Part shown: positions 15,633 through 62,165 of the stretch, piece after piece
Position numbering within the stretch: position 1 is the stretch's first letter
Layout of the letters: every line of letters begins with the position of its first letter
Sequence record: PZ445446.1
Direction: 5' to 3' (one strand)
Origin: a phage
DNA length: 64,000 nt
Notes under the pieces: model-generated
What the model was told of the DNA's origin: nothing
The model's input: only the letters and a program-made list of their open reading frames with translations
Database searches by the model: none
Translations under genes and position numbers: made by a program

Positions 15633-15848
15633 ATGATCACTAACAAAACAGGCAAAACAGAATTTTTACGCAACTTACAGATCGGCAAGCCTGAGATCTG
15701 GTATTGCACTAAAACACCACGTGACGAAATGAAAGACTTCACCGCCACGCTGCAACGGGTAAAGATATCCATCACGCAGAAAAAGGCCTTATTAGTGGTG
15801 GAAGGTGAGATCCCCCAAACCGTTGTTATAGTTGGGCGTACAGCATAG
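15633..15848 (+). CDS. hypothetical protein
   Basis: 71 aa ORF directly downstream of micro-ORF; weak SD. Confidence 0.35.
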   Translation: MITNKTGKTEFLRNLQIGKPEIWYCTKTPRDEMKDFTATLQRVKISITQKKALLVVEGEIPQTVVIVGRTA

Positions 15849-16777: not shown

Positions 16778-17050
16778 ATGTTAAGCTGGATTAACCAAGA
16801 AGTTGAATCACGTTTTAATGCTATTTGGGATCTCATCGAAAAAGAGGACGGAACATCAAGCCCTTATCTCAATAATCTTGAATTCCATTTCGTGGAAGCG
16901 ATGAACGCAGAACATGATCACGAAGGTGGTGCGGATGAATTCGCTAAAGGATATGGCTTCAACAATGCCAACGAAATGATCGAGGCGGTTGTACTCCAGG
17001 CTGAGGAAGATTATCAATTAAAAACGCTTGAATTCTGCCGCCGTAAGTAA
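16778..17050 (+). CDS. hypothetical protein
   Basis: Internal ATG at 16778 with gaagagaggaaaacgcc SD; TTGACA promoter-like and hairpin upstream. Confidence 0.45.
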   Translation: MLSWINQEVESRFNAIWDLIEKEDGTSSPYLNNLEFHFVEAMNAEHDHEGGADEFAKGYGFNNANEMIEAVVLQAEEDYQLKTLEFCRRK

Positions 17051-17110
17051 TAAGATAATGACACGGGCCAAAAGGCCCACTAATCAGAACCGCACAAAGA
17101 GGTAAACATC

Positions 17111-17374
17111 ATGAAACGTCTTGATCAGCTCAAATTAGTTCAATATATGGCTTATCGTGTTCTTGAAGTCCAGAAAGGTAGCAAAAAAGAGGTTTGCGAG
17201 AAAGCTTATAAGATCTTCACTCGCAAAAAAGATGACTGGATGCTGCGCCAGACTAAAAAGGCTGACATCTTGGGGTACCTGGAAGAAGAGATCCGCCTTG
17301 AAGAGCAAGAAGAGATCCGCCGTAGTGAGGCAGATTATCAGGCAGCTTGGGAAAACTGGATGAGCAACAAATAA
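17111..17374 (+). CDS. hypothetical protein
   Basis: 87 aa ORF; hairpin gggcc-aaaa-ggccc then aaagaggtaaacatc SD. Confidence 0.5.
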   Translation: MKRLDQLKLVQYMAYRVLEVQKGSKKEVCEKAYKIFTRKKDDWMLRQTKKADILGYLEEEIRLEEQEEIRRSEADYQAAWENWMSNK

Positions 17375-17440
17375 TACAACAAGTTACATGGTCAGGGGCA
17401 ATAAAGCCCCTTGATCACATAAAAATTATGCTATCCCTGG

Positions 17441-17469
17441 TTGACAGGGATCGGCAGTTTTGCTATATT
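17441..17469 (+). promoter_or_regulatory. sigma70-like promoter
   Basis: TTGACA, 17 bp spacer, TATATT upstream of ORF 17519. Confidence 0.55.
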
Positions 17470-17518
17470 CTTTTTTGAAGGGAAGTTGTAAGAAAATTAA
17501 CTAAGAGGTAAAAACACC

Positions 17519-17938
17519 ATGAACATTAAATCTAATAATCCGGCATATAGCTTTGATAACGCTTTTTGTCACGGTCCGGCGGCGAAAGGATTCGAAATCG
17601 ATGGTAAACTAATTATTGTCAATGTTGACGGGGAAGAGGTTGCAGTATATCCGGTGGCAGACGTAAAAAGCCGTTTACAATGCCGCATGGATGTTACCGC
17701 CTATCAGCTTGATCCGGTCCGCATAGTTGCCCTGGTCCTGGAAGAAGAAATTAAAGCCATGCACCATAGCAACAGATTTATTGGTGACGCGCAGGATAAT
17801 ATGAAAGTATGCCGCCATAAAGTTAATGAAGTGCTTAAAGAGTACGGCTATAAAGATCTTATGATCAAACGTGAGGAAAAATTCCGCTACCGTAACGACC
17901 TGGCAAATCGGATTTTTGAAATATACGAATCATTATAA
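17519..17938 (+). CDS. hypothetical protein
   Basis: 139 aa ORF with taagaggtaaaaacacc SD; last gene of the rightward block. Confidence 0.5.
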   Translation: MNIKSNNPAYSFDNAFCHGPAAKGFEIDGKLIIVNVDGEEVAVYPVADVKSRLQCRMDVTAYQLDPVRIVALVLEEEIKAMHHSNRFIGDAQDNMKVCRHKVNEVLKEYGYKDLMIKREEKFRYRNDLANRIFEIYESL

Positions 17939-17956
17939 TTTTTTAACTGAATTATC

Positions 17957-17981
17957 AAGGGGCTTAGGCCCCTTTCTTTTT
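17957..17981 (+). terminator. rho-independent terminator
   Basis: Hairpin aggggc-ttag-gcccct followed by ttcttttt. Confidence 0.6.
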
Positions 17982-18539
17982 GTCTGCTCTTCTCCTACCA
18001 TAAACGGCCCTACCTGGCAAGTGGAATAATTGACTAGCCATCAATCCCACATACTGTACAAATATACATGGAAAATAACTATTGCATAATTTTTCATTGT
18101 GTGGTAGCAAGTCCATTTTTACCCGTTTTCTCTCCCAAAAGTGCACGTAATGCCGCTATTGCACAAATTTTAACCTGATGCACATCTCCAATATCTTGTC
18201 AACAACTAAAAATCTTTATAAGTCATACACTTACACAGCATCGAAAGCGTGTTCTACGCGAAAAATCGAGTATAACTATAGCCGCCAGATCTCAGAATTC
18301 ACGTACGCACGCCATTCTATAGCCTGCAAAGTATTTATTCCAACCACAGAATAACGGAATAGTCAATACCTGCATAAAATAATTATTCGTGTAAACTGCA
18401 TAACATAAATCAGCTCAGGTGTCAACATTTTTCGTAAACAGTCCGAAATTATCACGATGAGCTATCATAAACAGAGAAATATTTAGTCGTCTAATGTTTA
18501 CTGTACATTACTATACTGACTGGAATCATTAGATGACTA

Positions 18540-19010
18540 AGAGAAAGATAAGAAATAATTAATAATGTAATTATTTTACCTGTAACAATAAGGCAACTAT
18601 GCAAACGAATGGCATGGCGCGACGGAGTCGCGACATAATATAAAAGCAGTAACCATCACCCCCGTGATAGTTTGTCTGCAAACTATTAATCAGATCATAG
18701 TTGCCTTGTATTTAGTTAATCATGACATAACAAGCAAGGCAACTATAGATCTTCTAATAGTTGCCCTGCTTTTATATTATGTCATAGGAACGCCCGAAGG
18801 GGTGACCTAGTCACCTGGTATAGCCAGCGAAAGATTATTAACTTGTCGATTGTTATCTTGTTAATTGTTTTCATGCAAACGAATGGCATGGCTTATCATC
18901 TATGCGTGAACAGTGAGGCATGCAATAGTAACAATTGTTATTGTATCCAGTGTGTTGAGTATGCCCAGTGTGTCACTATTATGTCATATTATGTCACAGT
19001 ATGTCAGACA
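18540..19010. repeat. iteron-like repeat cluster in non-coding convergence zone
   Basis: Direct and inverted copies of caaggcaactat / atagttgcc, two copies of atgcaaacgaatggcatggc (~18597 and ~18877), and a run of (t)atgtca(t/c/g) units at ~18975-19010. Confidence 0.5.
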
Positions 19011-20458
19011 AGTTTTCCTCCTCTTTGTCAAGTGCTGCATGAAAAATTTACAAGCTTGTATGGTAGCATTTTTGCGGCCCTGTTTACATTCAGTGTTGTA
19101 TGTATAATCCTTGTTGTGTGGGCGTTTAGACGTCTGGACGGTCAGAAGTTTGCAGGTCAATATCTAATCTATTGGCTGCTAACTATATCCCCCACAAATA
19201 ATAAGAAATATAATTGTTATGTGCGTAAACAGTAACCCATGTTATCAATCCCTGTATGTATCGCCAGTGGTGCGCATAATGGGTATTATGTTAAATTGCC
19301 CGTAATGATAACAGTTCTCACAATGATAGGTATTCTCATTCATCCACACAAAATAGGTTGCAAATGTTGTGCCACTGTGTGAACGGCCTGGCCTATTAAT
19401 TTCTCTCACTGCCTCGATATTTGAGAATTGTTATAAGAATGAGAAGTATTCCCATTCCGTCCGCCTGGCAGCACTCCAGTAGCTACCGGCTCCTGACAGG
19501 GCAGCACTCCTGTAGGTCAGGTCAAAATCGTGGTAGAATTGGGCCTGTTCAGATATTTCTGACTGACTCTTCAGATCTGTGTGGGAAAAGCCAACCTCTC
19601 CGGAGGGGCAGGGGAGGTCAATTAAAAAATTTACGTGGTGTATGAAGCGCTCTTCAGGTAAGGCATGTATTATGGGATGAAACCCTCTTCAGGCAATGAT
19701 ATTTGTGGGTGTGATATTTGCTGGAAAGCCAGATATGACGGGACTCCCGGCGGGGATGGGGTAGTACAGACAGGGAAAATATGGGGATGTAGTTGGGTAA
19801 ATTGATCAGACAGGTAGAGTATGGAATATGTTACAAGTATGTTAAATAGGGAGGATGAATATCTGCAGGATTTGTGTGTAAAATCAAAGACTTAAGTGGT
19901 GTTGTGGTATTTTCTATAAATAATTCAAGTTTAATAGGTAATATTTGTCTCTATCCACTTTGTGTGGTAAACAGATTCAGATGAAATTGGTTTACAAGTG
20001 TATACATAATATACAAATTAAAGATACAAGAAACCCCCCTCCCCCTTCGGCTACCATTCACCTTTTCCTCTGACTGGTACTTAAACACTTATTCAGACTC
20101 TTCAGGTTATCACCCATATATCATATGGCAGTGACTGGTGTCCTCCGGCCCCTCTTTCGTCACCCGTCCGCTTCGCCATGCTAATGCCATAGCCAATGGT
20201 TCGGTTGTTCACTCTGTTCACTCAGGTGTATCTCCATACCCCTTCAAACCGAAGAGAACAGAAAACCCGAATTACTCGGTAAAAGAAAAGAGAAGAACTT
20301 AATTTTATCAGGATAGGCAAGAATGTCAAGGCATGACTGCTCACTAAACAAGCAAACAGTCATGTGTGGAAGGTAAGTGATTGTGGTGGTGGGAAATTTA
20401 GTTGAAAGATGTGTTATAGGTGCGCTTCCAGCACTTTGGCCGGGCAGCTAATTGTGTG

Positions 20459-20674
20459 TCAGTCCAGCGGTTCATCCTCTACTTCACTGAAATCAATGTT
20501 CATGGTCTCCTCCCAACCATCGATCTCAGCACAAGAGTGGAGTTCTTTAGGGTTTACTCCCAAAGCCTCAGCAACAGAGTCTATATTTAACACCTCTGGC
20601 AGGTATGATTCATCGAATTCAAGGTAAATCAGGCCACGAGTGTTGTCAGCTCCACCAAATATCTCTATCTTCAT
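20459..20674 (-). CDS. hypothetical small acidic protein
   Basis: 71 aa ORF; distal gene of the leftward block. Confidence 0.4.
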   Translation of the reverse strand: MKIEIFGGADNTRGLIYLEFDESYLPEVLNIDSVAEALGVNPKELHSCAEIDGWEETMNIDFSEVEDEPLD

Positions 20675-20795
20675 GAAATCTCCTCTGGAAATGAGAGTGT
20701 GAACAGGGTTTTATACGTTCTAATGCACAGGAATTATACACGTTTGCCTCTTCAGGCCATGCTTTAGCATGAGGAACCTGTGTGGGCTCGGTGCT

Positions 20796-21008
20796 TCATA
20801 GTCTACCACCTCTGAACTCTTCGTGCTCAGGCATAATAGAGAACCAGATATCTACGATGTCCTCCCACGTCAGGTCATCAGCCTCAGGATCTGTCTGGGA
20901 CGAAGATGAAGAGTCCTCAGAATCTAAGTTTTCCTCTTTAACTGGCTCATCCAAGGGACATATGGTCACTCCTTCGGATGTCTCTTCAGATGCATGTGTG
21001 TTGATCAT
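20796..21008 (-). CDS. hypothetical small acidic protein
   Basis: 70 aa ORF, Ser/Asp/Glu rich. Confidence 0.35.
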   Translation of the reverse strand: MINTHASEETSEGVTICPLDEPVKEENLDSEDSSSSSQTDPEADDLTWEDIVDIWFSIMPEHEEFRGGRL

Positions 21009-21368
21009 GTTCCCCCCGTGAGTATTCCGGCAACAGCCGCTATGGAAGTAATGATCATCAGGATCACCACTAAAACTTCAGACAATGTTCTCATTGTATA
21101 TTCCATATTCTCCAAACTGTGTGTGGATACTATCACGGGAGCGGTAATGTGTCAACAGCAACGCCGCGAGGGTTTGGTTAAAATCCGAGCGTATGGTGAT
21201 TTGGGTCAAAACGGACGTGCGTTCTCGCTACGCTCGAAAGAGAGACTTGTTTGTAGAAAGCTCTTAAACGCTCTGTAACGAGATTATCTGTCCAAGGTAT
21301 GCAATCGTGCACCAGATAAAGAAAAGGACGCCACAGAGCGTCCTAGGTGTCTTAAATTTGATATTTTG

Positions 21369-21680
21369 CTATACCCATGAGGGCTTATCAAGGTTGGAGT
21401 AGCTGAAAGGTGTCAAAAGGTGACTGTCAAAATCCCTCAAACTATCCAAATCTTTTTCCTCGTCCTGACACCATCTGTGCCTACATTTATTGTTGTAGTG
21501 CATAGAATGCATAGCGTTCTGCAACTTAACAGGTACAAGTGATTCAGGAGTAGATAGTATTGTTGGGTATGCCAGAATCACCTCAAACAGTGGAAACACA
21601 TCGAAACTAAAGTCTATCTCTGCAGAGGTTGATGGCATATAGGAGTATTTAGCCGCCTTTGTAGACATAATCCACCTCAC
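21369..21680 (-). CDS. hypothetical protein
   Basis: 103 aa ORF; 4-nt overlap with upstream gene. Confidence 0.4.
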   Translation of the reverse strand: MRWIMSTKAAKYSYMPSTSAEIDFSFDVFPLFEVILAYPTILSTPESLVPVKLQNAMHSMHYNNKCRHRWCQDEEKDLDSLRDFDSHLLTPFSYSNLDKPSWV

Positions 21681-22058: not shown

Positions 22059-22364
22059 TTATTCTACAGAGCGTTTGAACAGAATGTCTGCCTCAGACAT
22101 GTGCTCAACCTCTTCTTCGATTTTAGCGCGACGTTTTTCAGCCTCATAGCGAATATCGAACTCGGTAGCCACCAGAGATTTGATGAATTTAGGAGAATAC
22201 AGGTGATCCTGCTTCTCAACGAGAATGATATCCTTAATGGCATCTTTCAGATCTTTAATCTGAAGTTGGAGTTCTACCAGTTCTTCGATTGTTTTGCGAA
22301 GGCGATCACGCTCTGCAGTGTCAGAAGGAAGAGAGGTGAACAGTTCAACTTTAGATTTAGCCAT
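22059..22364 (-). CDS. hypothetical coiled-coil protein
   Basis: 101 aa ORF; charged heptad-like sequence. Confidence 0.45.
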   Translation of the reverse strand: MAKSKVELFTSLPSDTAERDRLRKTIEELVELQLQIKDLKDAIKDIILVEKQDHLYSPKFIKSLVATEFDIRYEAEKRRAKIEEEVEHMSEADILFKRSVE

Positions 22365-61306: not shown

Positions 61307-61381
61307 GCCCTGTTAGCTTAGTGGATAAAGCAGCGGCCTTCTAAGCCGTTGACACTGGTTCGAGTCCAGTACGGGGTGCCA
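61307..61381 (+). tRNA. tRNA-Arg (anticodon UCU)
   Basis: Hand-folded cloverleaf: acceptor gccctgt/acggggt (two G-U), D-arm gctt/aagc, anticodon loop cttctaa, T-loop ttcgagt, encoded CCA. Confidence 0.7.
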
Positions 61382-61385
61382 AATT

Positions 61386-61472
61386 GGGGAGTTATCCCGT
61401 AGAGGTAGCGGTGTAGACTGTAAATCTATTGTCATTGCGACTCGGGTGGTTCGACTCCACCACTCCCCACCA
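61386..61472 (+). tRNA. tRNA-Tyr (anticodon GUA), type II
   Basis: Acceptor ggggagt/actcccc, anticodon loop ctgtaaa, long variable arm, T-arm ggtgg-ttcgact-ccacc, CCA encoded; close to E. coli tRNA-Tyr. Confidence 0.75.
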
Positions 61473-61586
61473 AATTTATATTTTTAGATGCATAAATAAT
61501 ACAGATAATGGCATTGATATTTATCGTCGTTTATACTAGTCACTAACTGCTCGAAAATCAGTGTCATTATCAGTATAATTTATAAA

Positions 61587-61677
61587 GGAGGGTAGGGAGC
61601 AATGGTGCTCAAGCGGTCTTGAAAACCGTCCCGTTGAGGATGACTCGATGATGGTTCGATTCCATTACTCTCCGCCA
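61587..61677 (+). tRNA. tRNA-Ser (anticodon UGA), type II
   Basis: Acceptor ggagggt/actctcc, D-stem gagc/gctc, anticodon stem gcggt/accgt with loop cttgaaa, long variable arm, T-loop ttcgatt, CCA encoded. Confidence 0.7.
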
Positions 61678-61766
61678 CATTGTTGACCTTGTAATTAAGC
61701 GAAAGCCGGAAGCAGAACCGGATTATCAAATGTTACAGTCGTCATCGCCGACTAGCAACATGGTCA

Positions 61767-61863
61767 ACATACTGAGCTAGGTAAGCCCTTTGGCAAGGGC
61801 GAGGATTTTTAATCCTGAAAATAGACGAGGTAGTCGTTGAATACATAGGTGGTTCGATTCCAT
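61767..61863 (+). tRNA. atypical tRNA-like gene (UUU-like anticodon loop, ~30-nt extra region, no encoded CCA)
   Basis: Perfect 7-bp acceptor gctaggt/acctagc, normal D-arm (gccc-tttggcaa-gggc) and T-arm (ggtgg-ttcgatt-ccatc), anticodon-like loop tttttaa; ~30 nt between anticodon and T arms; 3' end is CCT. Confidence 0.4.
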
Positions 61864-61870
61864 CACCTAG

Positions 61871-61946
61871 CACCTTTTTGCTGATGTAGCACAATCGGTA
61901 GTGCAATTGATTTGTAATCAATAGGTTGTAGGTTCAAGTCCTGCCA
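61871..61946 (+). tRNA. tRNA-Thr (anticodon UGU)
   Basis: Acceptor gctgatg/catcagc, D-stem gcac/gtgc, anticodon stem attga/tcaat with loop tttgtaa, T-loop ttcaagt, CCA encoded. Confidence 0.75.
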
Positions 61947-61947
61947 T

Positions 61948-62022
61948 CAGCACCAAGGCCCTGTAGCTGGAAGGTTCAAGCAAGCGACTCATAATCGCCA
62001 GACGGTGGTTCAATTCCACCCA
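61948..62022 (+). tRNA. tRNA-Met (anticodon CAU; initiator/elongator/Ile-lysidine not resolved)
   Basis: Acceptor ggccctg/cagggcc, anticodon loop ctcataa, T-arm ggtgg-ttcaatt-ccacc, CCA encoded. Confidence 0.65.
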
Positions 62023-62033
62023 GGGCCACCAAA

Positions 62034-62110
62034 TAGTAAATACTCCGCGTAGCTCAGCTTGGTAGAGCGCCTGATTTGGGATCAGGAGGTCGAGTGTTCG
62101 AATCACTCCG
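62034..62110 (+). tRNA. tRNA-Pro (anticodon UGG)
   Basis: Acceptor ctccgcg/cgtggag, D-arm gctc-agcttggta-gagc, anticodon stem cctga/tcagg with loop tttggga, T-loop ttcgaat, CCA encoded. Confidence 0.75.
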
Positions 62111-62165
62111 TGGAGACCACTTTCAGTTATACTTTAAACATATATAAACAAAAGGAACCTTTAAA

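Follow-up and report, generated by a model that had tools for sequence, protein, structure and literature searches.

What is the purpose of a stretch of more than two kilobases without genes, lying between two gene blocks that are transcribed towards each other? The question is raised by the interval 17990-20458 (2469 bp) of the window, as we call the whole stretch of 64,000 nucleotides analysed here (record PZ445446.1), which belongs to an rV5-like E. coli phage (Vequintavirus). The rightward block closes with the + strand gene 17519-17938, followed by an intrinsic terminator (17957-17981, + strand) composed of the stem AAGGGGCTTAGGCCCCTT (17957-17974) and a T-run, and the leftward block begins with the - strand gene 20459-20674. 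In relatives that lack the 139-aa gene, homology to the window begins at this terminator. A previous reading of the letters alone (the sequence-only reading) had described a non-coding convergence zone with iteron-like short repeats and a terminator at its left border, and this description proved accurate. Its remark that so long a gene-free stretch is unusual is fair, yet the stretch is a conserved trait of the subfamily, present at the same place in PVP-SE1 (2.27 kb) and KPP-1 (about 1.8 kb). The rV5 genome paper (Kropinski et al. 2013, PMC3606486) had shown a box labelled "non-coding" at this locus, with gene 163 on one side and gene 164 on the other, devoid of ORFs and with a change of skew at 104425-105475; positions 104014-106564 of rV5 (NC_011041) align to the whole interval at about 90% identity. 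No similarity to the interval was found in E. coli chromosomes, and of the two plasmid hits one was a mislabelled phage genome, matched completely, and the other a fragment of 40 nt.

The interval contains 16 ORFs of 36-130 aa, every one of which was rejected as a gene by coding tests (reading frame intactness and substitution pattern); the majority are truncated or frameshifted among the 13 relatives compared. It has been annotated otherwise: several GenBank records place small protein genes here (e.g. 'putative membrane protein', 'structural protein'), and four ORFs, 19239-19382 (47 aa), 20102-20221, 20138-20302 and 20244-20363, are indeed intact in at least 13 of 14 sequences. However, the few intact ORFs sit in near-invariant DNA and show no third-position excess, with 30 non-synonymous versus 8 synonymous changes, 7 versus 3, 8 versus 3 and 7 versus 1, whereas the flanking genes show 47 synonymous versus 16 non-synonymous and 20 versus 12. 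Variable sites counted by codon position give the same contrast (11/15/12, 5/2/3 and 4/3/4 in intact ORFs of the interval; 7/6/50 and 7/4/23 in flanking genes). By eye, no Shine-Dalgarno sequence precedes the starts at 19239 or 20363, all remaining ORFs are broken in relatives, and the CDSs called by some depositors vary among records, several of them lying inside duplicated or assembly-artefact DNA. Unannotated small protein genes are thus extremely improbable. The left spacer arm (17990-18480), A+C-rich on the + strand and with ORFs broken in relatives, evolves at a near-neutral rate, its pi of 0.08-0.10 being comparable to the 0.055-0.123 of third codon positions in the flanking genes.

Records of close relatives place a direct terminal repeat (DTR) at 19007-19465, inside this gene-free interval. 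Gotham, EdH4 and ECP2309 are independent deposits (EdH4 from Germany, ECP2309 from China, Gotham of unstated origin) that are 94-96% identical in the region; all three bear exact 459-bp repeats at both record ends, which map to window 19007-19465, and the bov10K2 record starts at 19465. Consistent with this, Korf et al. (2019) gave the terminal redundancy of EdH4 and HdK5 as 458 bp. The CM1 record contains a perfect 523-bp tandem duplication, the product of naive end-joining, that corresponds to window 18943-19465 and ends at 19465. By this record the left edge would lie 64 bp further to the left; the left patch of the window is of the CM1 type, and the DTR might instead begin at 18943 (523 bp). 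The window holds a single collapsed copy, with no second match within the 64 kb and no long direct repeat in the region, and the ends of its own phage would lie where homology with these relatives puts them. We consider it likely that the interval is the concatemer junction, or genome-end region, and that the phage packages its DNA as a linear, non-permuted chromosome bearing a short direct repeat at both termini. A terminal-repeat boundary had been among the candidates of the sequence-only reading, with related genomes proposed as a check, and it is this candidate that the comparison upholds, with both edges conserved in three genera; the repeat itself accounts for just 459 of the 2469 bp.

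Two published descriptions count against fixed ends. The rV5 paper described the genome as circularly permuted and assigned no function to the non-coding box (PMC3606486), and in a 2026 paper on the vequintavirus BpE1AUH the PhageTerm call was headful packaging with partial permutation. Other records say little: the ends of 241Ecol014PP share only a 99-bp assembly overlap, and the record of Proteus phage Mydo is opened elsewhere. The I29 record shows a 546-bp duplication with an inverted piece at the locus, which carries no information on ends.

Beyond the genus, the Klebsiella phage KPP-1 (Mydovirus; PMC9862379) has a terminal repeat of 514 bp, which was placed with sequencing reads (twofold coverage and a PhageTerm call). 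It sits in the same kind of gene-poor convergence zone, and the KP12 record opens exactly at its start. We compared the window with KPP-1 and three Seunavirus phages (PVP-SE1, 4MG and GAP31) after flipping their orientation, which is justified by the match of PVP-SE1 gp183 to the window ORF 15633-15848 (E 6e-17). A 101-aa neighbour (22059-22364) was rejected as a synteny anchor, its KPP-1 homologue lying 36 kb from the KPP-1 terminal repeat. In all five phages, a palindrome, the left edge, TGTCAAG, AAATTTACAA, the core TTATGTTAAAT and a right-edge motif, GTCCGYC^TRRCA (the caret marks the repeat edge), are collinear. This last motif reads GTCCGCC^TGGCA in the window (19459-19470, + strand), where the putative cut would fall between 19465 and 19466; it stands at the collinear position in the four other phages and matches both the read-mapped repeat end of KPP-1 and the start of the KP12 record. 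The left edge (19006^19007) reads GTC^TGACA on the - strand, which is the inverted counterpart of the right-edge motif, and when the window, KPP-1, PVP-SE1, 4MG and GAP31 are aligned, this edge, with the pattern ..TG(T/C)(C/T)A^(G/A)AC.., and the right-edge motif each line up in all five. The pentamer just outside the repeat, inverted at the two edges, is TGACA/TGGCA in the window and TAGCA/TAGCA in KPP-1, and is short enough for chance recurrence. This conservation suggests that both repeat edges are sequence-specific sites at which the DNA would be cut.

Within the repeat, the core (19267-19301, containing TTATGTTAAAT) is similar to KPP-1, PVP-SE1, 4MG and GAP31 in inverted orientation (83-93% identity over 30-35 nt, E 2e-3 to 1.5e-6) and is the best-conserved 50-nt bin (98.8%). 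Next to it lies a tandem 18-mer in two copies (TAATGATAACAGTTCTCA / CAATGATAGGTATTCTCA, 19303-19338, + strand); its equivalent is annotated as a repeat_region in phage navn and maps to the window with 3 mismatches. A C-rich motif at 20030, CCCCCCTCCCCC, resembles one in KPP-1, a likeness dismissed as coincidence because the motif is on the opposite strand after flipping.

The diversity profile of the interval follows the DTR, with hypervariable patches exactly outside each edge and constrained blocks further out. On the left, an indel-rich repeat array (18786-19006, + strand; pi 0.20) abuts the DTR; it opens with degenerate GTRAAYAGT-type units that recur about every 15 bp and continues with a 10-bp TRTGTCA tandem repeat (18971-19006, about 3.5 copies by TRF); the rV5 array adjoining the terminal repeat has about 10 degenerate GTRAAYAGT units with a 15-16 bp period. 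On the right, the patch 19466-19550 (+ strand; pi 0.185) contains GGCAGCACTCC twice, 33 bp apart, and lineage-specific alternative insertions flanked by CTCCTGTAGGTC. It is followed by a G-rich right arm (19551-19999, + strand; pi 0.06, GC skew +0.45 at 19600-19999) with three copies of CTCTTCAG and two pairs of 18-20 nt direct repeats (families D6 and D7), and with no structure signal in folding z-scores. Several of these units are clustered here: six of the nine GTRAACAG sites of the 64-kb window fall in the 2.5-kb interval (about 2.5e-7 by a hand-worked binomial estimate), four of six exact ATAGTTGCC sites lie within 18592-18765, and CTCTTCAG occurs 11 times in the window versus 2.6 expected, six times at 19567-20989, four of these inside the interval. 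Finally, an exact 20-mer, ATGCAAACGAATGGCATGGC (family D5, + strand; 18599-18618 and 18873-18892), brackets the palindrome, and both copies are kept in all aligned relatives; an IMG/VR scan with this exact 20-mer returned two contigs only. The repeats had been called iteron-like; they are real and clustered, but the label fits only the 18786-19006 array, many of the others being inverted and not direct. We regard the arrays of short repeats at both edges as candidates for the binding of packaging proteins.

The palindrome, which we call Element A (18632-18783), is a 152-nt multibranched element with a perfect outer stem of 18 bp, inside which lie a 9-bp hairpin and a long hairpin with ATAGTTGCC half-sites. 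In sliding-window folding of both strands, only 18480-18840 stands out, and it does so symmetrically (z-scores of the element: -7.7 for DNA, + strand; -7.3 for RNA, - strand). Its pi is 0.013, a constraint comparable to that of codon positions 1 and 2, and it is at least 99% identical in 60 of 117 records. Variable columns are 8 of the 122 paired versus 11 of the 30 unpaired positions (Fisher 8e-5), and a positional counterpart in KPP-1, PVP-SE1, 4MG and GAP31 yields 57 consensus pairs, 6 of them with compensatory double changes. Pairing in this palindrome is under selection. The element stands 224 bp before the DTR and, with the conserved gene block as reference, it is found on that side in three genera without exception. 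Beyond the outer stem, no alignable sequence is shared with the KPP-1 element; an internal order inverted relative to KPP-1 ('flip/flop', with a shared ATCAC/GTGAT hairpin) was considered and dropped as too weak.

A non-coding RNA locus had been proposed. Element A or a second block, Element B, would then be transcribed into a structured or regulatory RNA, and as RNA the palindrome does fold far better than shuffled sequence. However, it folds equally on both strands and its G·T-type changes are split evenly between strands, which is the behaviour of a DNA palindrome and not of a stranded RNA; it has no conserved promoter beside it and its flanks are hypervariable. Element B (20000-20335) is a strongly constrained non-coding block (pi 0.016-0.02, again comparable to codon positions 1 and 2; all 118 matching records at least 95% identical, 55 at least 99%), and its ORFs are without a coding substitution pattern. 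It includes, on the - strand, a near-consensus sigma-70 promoter-like site (20302-20329: TTGACA, 16-nt spacer, TAAAAT, extended -10 TG), which is the best of the region with 11 of 12 matches and is 98.6% conserved, and about 25 nt later an intrinsic terminator (20257-20279; CCGAGTAATTCGG and a T-run) that is 99.7% conserved. Coding-like constraint without coding, together with this pair of signals, is what an RNA gene might look like, e.g. a transcript of about 40 nt that starts at the 20329 promoter and stops at the 20267 terminator. Yet the terminator may merely end the leftward gene block, and the folding z-scores of Element B are unremarkable apart from the promoter and terminator surroundings. 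Over 17000-21500, neither strand gave an Rfam 15 match at E<=1, and ARAGORN found no tRNA or tmRNA in the region. An RNA locus was therefore not borne out, and we judge it very unlikely.

A replication origin had been the remaining candidate. The AT-rich segment 18200-18600, the palindrome and the arrays would then form an unwinding element with initiator sites or, alternatively, an R-loop origin would depend on priming from the 20329 promoter. The ingredients are present: GC content drops to 33-35% at 18200-18800, adjoining the strongly structured element, a direct-repeat array lies close by, the near-consensus promoter stands in a constrained block without coding, and the rV5 authors reported a change of skew here (PMC3606486). 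The same authors, though, explain each skew change by genes being transcribed from the other strand (PMC3606486), and the cumulative GC skew has a local maximum here, where an origin would be expected to show a minimum; this is a polarity of terminus or convergent transcription, albeit confounded by convergent transcription itself. Moreover, the region contains a single 8/9 DnaA-box match (19340) and no cluster, no initiator-type gene is annotated in the flanks, and nowhere in the region is conservation lower than in the repeat array (pi 0.20), whose copy number ranges from about 2 to about 10. We found no transcriptomic or origin-mapping study of vequintaviruses in the literature. An origin, perhaps in one of the sub-elements, could coexist with a terminal-repeat function, but on these grounds the candidate found no support and is unlikely.

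Returning to the genome-end region, we propose the following layout. In the replicating concatemer, as in the collapsed assembly of the window, one DTR copy (19007-19465, possibly from 18943) would stand between the unique DNA of the right end, which runs up to 19006, and that of the left end, which starts at 19466. The packaging enzyme would recognise sequences in the flanking arms, and one enzyme might nick opposite strands at the two edges, in a staggered way, at the same pentamer placed in inverted orientation just outside the repeat. Strand-displacement synthesis would then duplicate the repeat, so that every virion DNA would have it at both ends. The most likely form in which Element A would act is that of an extruded DNA hairpin or cruciform, and it could be either a recognition site or a hairpin primer for this duplication. 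That Element A and its Mydovirus and Seunavirus counterparts form a subfamily-wide cis hairpin or cruciform, priming DTR duplication or serving packaging recognition, with the inverted TRRCA edge pentamers as nicking sites, is a more tentative proposal, which we hold as possible and not as probable. If true, it would provide a clear comparative case, beyond the T7 group, of terminal repeats being duplicated with the help of a hairpin, and this in a phage without its own RNA polymerase.

The terminal repeat and the gene-free box have each been reported before for this phage group, and most of the biology described here is known, the cis-element adding something modestly new; we found no paper that links the two or describes the hairpin element. 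It has practical consequences nonetheless. Of the approximately 120 rV5-like genomes on deposit, the majority start at an arbitrary point, some are affected by assembly artefacts here (the CM1 tandem duplication, the I29 rearrangement) and several have spurious genes annotated. The DTR 19007-19465, with its edge motifs ..TGTCA^GAC.. and GTCCGYC^TRRCA as placed by relatives, would allow consistent orientation and annotation, and would also guide genome engineering of these phages, which are therapeutic candidates. Since the recognition and duplication of short terminal repeats are poorly understood outside T7, a locus that combines a conserved covarying hairpin with symmetric edge motifs, testable by mutation, is of wider use.

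Compared with what is known, the rV5 "non-coding" box (PMC3606486) is the same locus, and the evidence presented here puts fixed ends and a terminal repeat inside it. The 458-bp repeats of EdH4 and HdK5 (Korf et al. 2019) and the 514-bp repeat of KPP-1 (PMC9862379) are the same element as the DTR of the window; these two papers give the repeat length, without edge motifs, flanking arrays, palindrome or a link to the gene-free zone. Iteron-type origins (plasmid, lambdoid phage ori) resemble the locus in having arrays of short direct repeats by an AT-rich stretch and inverted repeats. In contrast to them, the repeats here are 9-10 nt long and degenerate, their copy number varies between close relatives, no annotated initiator gene adjoins them, the skew polarity is wrong and the array ends exactly at the mapped genome terminus.

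T7-type phages (T7, T3, SP6, phiKMV, N4) have a non-permuted linear genome with a non-coding repeat of a few hundred bp shared by both ends, and a single copy likewise stands between genomes at their concatemer junction. The present phage differs in being a 137-kb myovirus for which the rV5 paper reports no phage RNA polymerase (the window covers 64 kb, and the large terminase gene probably lies outside it), so that a T7-like pausing of the polymerase at the junction cannot apply. Furthermore, transcription on both sides runs toward the ends and not away from the left one, the non-coding zone is about ten times the size of that of T7, the palindrome is a multibranched element of 150-200 nt instead of a simple inverted repeat, and T7 has no sequence similarity to the locus. 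The architecture is nevertheless alike, with short-repeat arrays on both flanks of the repeat, those of T7 reportedly being SRL and SRR. In T7-type phages, too, an inverted repeat precedes the right-end copy by a couple of hundred bp, and inverted repeats at the genome ends have been described in N4. The T7 'hairpin end' is the subject of Chung, Nardone and Hinkle (1990). A hairpin primer for terminal-repeat duplication has been proposed for T7, and in the present locus an inverted repeat able to form a hairpin, Element A, is found in the right-end unique DNA shortly before the DTR, much as in T7.

The 2.5-kb interval at 17990-20458 matches 121 phage records with 87-96% identity, nearly all of them from Vequintavirus (rV5-like coliphages), and a search of E. 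coli chromosomes with it returned no similarity. According to the gene calls, the rightward block ends with a gene at 17519-17938 (+ strand) and the leftward block begins with one at 20459-20674 (- strand). The sequence carries an intrinsic terminator with a T-run (17957-17974, + strand) which closes the rightward block, confirming the convergent arrangement described in the sequence-only reading. The absence of credible ORFs, claimed there too, also held when the window was aligned with 13 relatives to assess ORF integrity and codon-position variation. In relatives, most of the ORFs of 36-130 aa are cut short or frameshifted; the four that stay intact all lie in near-invariant DNA, have variable sites per codon position of 11/15/12, 5/2/3, 4/3/4 and 6/1/4 (7/6/50 and 7/4/23 in the flanking genes) and show more non-synonymous than synonymous changes. 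Since its ORFs are either broken in relatives or devoid of a coding signature, the interval is non-coding, and small protein genes were ruled out.

The 139-aa gene at 17519-17938 is an accessory gene at the junction edge, missing from roughly half the relatives in the alignment (Gotham, EdH4, SYGMH1, ev146, APCEc02 and one IMG/VR contig), in which homology picks up again at the terminator. Among the matches to the interval, 19 GenBank records are named 'Campylobacter phage' (MG0656xx), with Campylobacter jejuni or Campylobacter given as host; the individually listed ones have 90.5-96% identity (e.g. MG065646.1, 24916-27520), and these records are probably mislabelled or cross-contaminated vequintavirus genomes. 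CP057073.1 (4496-6930), a 137,565-bp PLSDB 'plasmid' of an E. coli isolate obtained from pooled faeces of cattle, covers the whole interval with 91.6% identity; judging by size, it is the genome of an rV5-like phage that was assembled together with the host. Elsewhere in the window, seven tRNA genes cluster at 61307-62119, and ARAGORN reports the one at 61776-61874 as 'tRNA-???' with a four-base anticodon (atcc).

The reading that best accounts for the interval is a genome-end region carrying a short direct terminal repeat. Several GenBank records start or stop inside it, at two shared positions. Gotham has a 459-bp repeat_region annotated at both ends, whose identical copies map to window 19007-19465; EdH4 (Germany) and ECP2309 (China) have exact 459-bp terminal repeats with the same coordinates, and the bov10K2 record (Hungary) opens at the equivalent of 19465. 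The left edge is 19006|19007 (TATGTCA|GACAAG) and the right edge 19465|19466 (CCGTCCGCC|TGGCAGC). CM1 contains a perfect 523-bp tandem duplication of window 18943-19465, as naive end-joining of a terminally repeated genome yields; its right edge is again 19465, but on the left it extends outward by another 64 bp, and the window's lineage may likewise have its left edge at 18943. The record annotates two CDSs spanning this duplication (CM1 sequence L002, 4044-5089), and in I29 (sequence L018, 1784-2923) a stretch of 546 bp is duplicated, with an inverted piece of 60-120 bp; both duplications appear to be artefacts of assembly due to the terminal repeat. By homology, the ends of the window phage itself would be those of its relatives.

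A 458-bp terminal redundancy was published earlier in the genus, for EdH4 and HdK5 (Korf et al. 2019). The rV5 genome paper (Kropinski et al. 2013, PMC3606486), one of two papers that call vequintavirus genomes permuted or headful-packaged, describes a circularly permuted genome and draws the locus between genes 163 and 164 as a grey "non-coding" box without ORFs, to which no function is assigned; it also reports that the GC/AT skew changes at 104425-105475. For the genus, box and redundancy are thus known, each published separately, and we found no paper in the literature joining them.

Other genera lend support. In the Klebsiella phage KPP-1 (Mydovirus), twofold coverage and PhageTerm placed a terminal repeat of 514 bp at 116,316-116,829 (PMC9862379); convergent blocks enclose it in about 1.8 kb of gene-poor DNA, and the KP12 record opens exactly where this repeat starts. 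In PVP-SE1 (Seunavirus), the homologous place is taken by a convergence zone of 2.27 kb that is free of genes. The gp183 of this phage is homologous to the window ORF 15633-15848 (47% identity, E 6e-17), which shows that those loci run in the opposite orientation to the window. Once oriented alike, all five phages (window, KPP-1, PVP-SE1, 4MG and GAP31) share one order of eight landmarks: gene block, large palindrome, left edge (window ATGTCA|GAC against KPP-1 TTGCTA|AAC, aligned column for column), pyrimidine tract, TGTCAAG, (A/G)ATTTACAA, a core of about 30 bp with TTATGTTAAAT (window 19267-19301; 83-93% identical, E down to 1.5e-6) and right edge GTCCGYC|TRRCA. The suggestion of a terminal-repeat boundary is therefore upheld, by the mapped 459-bp repeats and by edges collinear across genera. 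Just outside the repeat, both edges carry the same pentamer, inverted at one relative to the other (window: TGACA and TGGCA; KPP-1 and PVP-SE1: TAGCA at both), which we read as a single nicking specificity. Acting on opposite strands at the two edges, it would duplicate the repeat by staggered nicking, a classical route to such duplication.

Evolutionary rates follow the same borders. Against flanking-gene pi values of 0.055-0.123 at third codon positions and about 0.01-0.02 at positions 1 and 2, pi is near neutral at 17990-18480 (0.08-0.10), strongly constrained at 18600-18785 (0.013; Element A), hypervariable at 18786-19006 (0.20), mildly constrained in the terminal repeat (0.064), hypervariable at 19466-19550 (0.185), mildly constrained at 19551-19999 (0.06) and strongly constrained at 20000-20335 (0.016-0.02; Element B). 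Each repeat edge is therefore bordered, immediately on its outer side, by one of the two hypervariable patches, both rich in indels. Across about 118 records, Element A reaches at least 99% identity in 60 and Element B in 55, the whole region being mostly at 90-95%.

The left patch is a degenerate direct-repeat array, shortened in the window, where a tandem TRTGTCA array with a 10-bp unit occupies 18971-19006; in rV5 it holds about 10 GTRAAYAGT-type units with a 15-16 bp period, followed by TGTCA units. Six of the nine window sites of GTRAACAG fall within the interval, as do two copies each of an exact 20-mer and of GGCAGCACTCC, and four of the six exact ATAGTTGCC sites lie within 174 bp. The short repeats noticed initially are thus real and clustered, but "iteron-like" fits the left patch only, and copy number is unconserved. 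Window-wide, TGTGTGG has 29 sites (8.7 expected) and CTCTTCAG 11 (2.6 expected), six of them at 19567-20989; examples are 20748-20785, 19567-19584 and a cluster at 56-59 kb. Read on the - strand, CTGAAGAG stands 9-10 nt upstream of -10-like hexamers, e.g. before gene 20459-20674, which hints at a phage-specific promoter element.

The AT-rich stretch with the palindrome, or the promoter block, may have an origin function, but a replication origin in the interval, also proposed initially, is disfavoured: the skew has the wrong polarity, with its maximum at the interval, the direct-repeat array is unstable, and there is no annotated initiator gene. A DnaA-box scan of the region found no cluster, the single 8/9 match (TCATCCACA, 19340-19348) being isolated inside the terminal repeat, directly after tandem 18-mers.

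Element B, though constrained, showed no significant folding in the z-score scan. It contains the best candidate sigma-70 site of the region (20329 to 20302, - strand; 11/12 matches, extended -10) and, about 25 nt further, an intrinsic terminator (20279-20267, - strand), which may simply end the leftward operon; alternatively, the sigma-70 site would give a transcript of about 40 nt. On the same strand, a 101-aa protein (22059-22364) is encoded 2.6 kb from the terminal repeat (36 kb in KPP-1). It is found subfamily-wide (42-60% identity in Seunavirus, Mydovirus and Certrevirus) and is annotated in some records as a transcriptional regulator or double-stranded DNA-binding protein.

Element A proper (18632-18783) is a 152-nt multibranched palindrome whose perfect outer stem of 18 bp encloses a 9-bp hairpin and a long one with ATAGTTGCC half-sites; no other stretch of the interval folds so far beyond its shuffled versions on the two strands (z -7.7 and -7.3). 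Among 19 phylogenetically non-independent vequintavirus sequences, variation touches 8 of the 122 paired columns and 11 of the 30 unpaired ones (Fisher 8e-5), and the 33-nt insertion of rV5 and LL12 falls in the apical loop. The 206-nt KPP-1 counterpart (z -8.8 and -9.9) is kept at 73-100% identity throughout Mydovirus and Seunavirus; in a four-genome alignment, six of its 57 consensus pairs show compensatory double changes, and breaks occur at gaps only. A non-coding RNA gene, the remaining initial candidate, was not borne out, as Rfam gave no match at E<=1 and the structure is strand-symmetric. This symmetry, an even split of G·T-type changes between strands and the lack of a conserved promoter adjoining Element A all favour a DNA hairpin or cruciform over an RNA. 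In KPP-1 (sequence L017, 4741-5201), the palindrome ATGATAAnnnTTATCAT occurs four times within and beyond the hairpin element, paralleling the four ATAGTTGCC half-sites around Element A, which suggests that both lineages have a dimeric protein binding DNA there.

Element A and the repeat arrays are candidate cis-elements of the genome end. The palindrome, conserved and covarying, and the symmetric motifs at the edges are a modest novelty and are amenable to experiment. Lying shortly before the right-end repeat copy, Element A parallels the inverted repeat that Chung, Nardone and Hinkle reportedly implicated in 1990 in the "hairpin end" intermediate of T7, and likewise the inverted repeats near the ends of N4.
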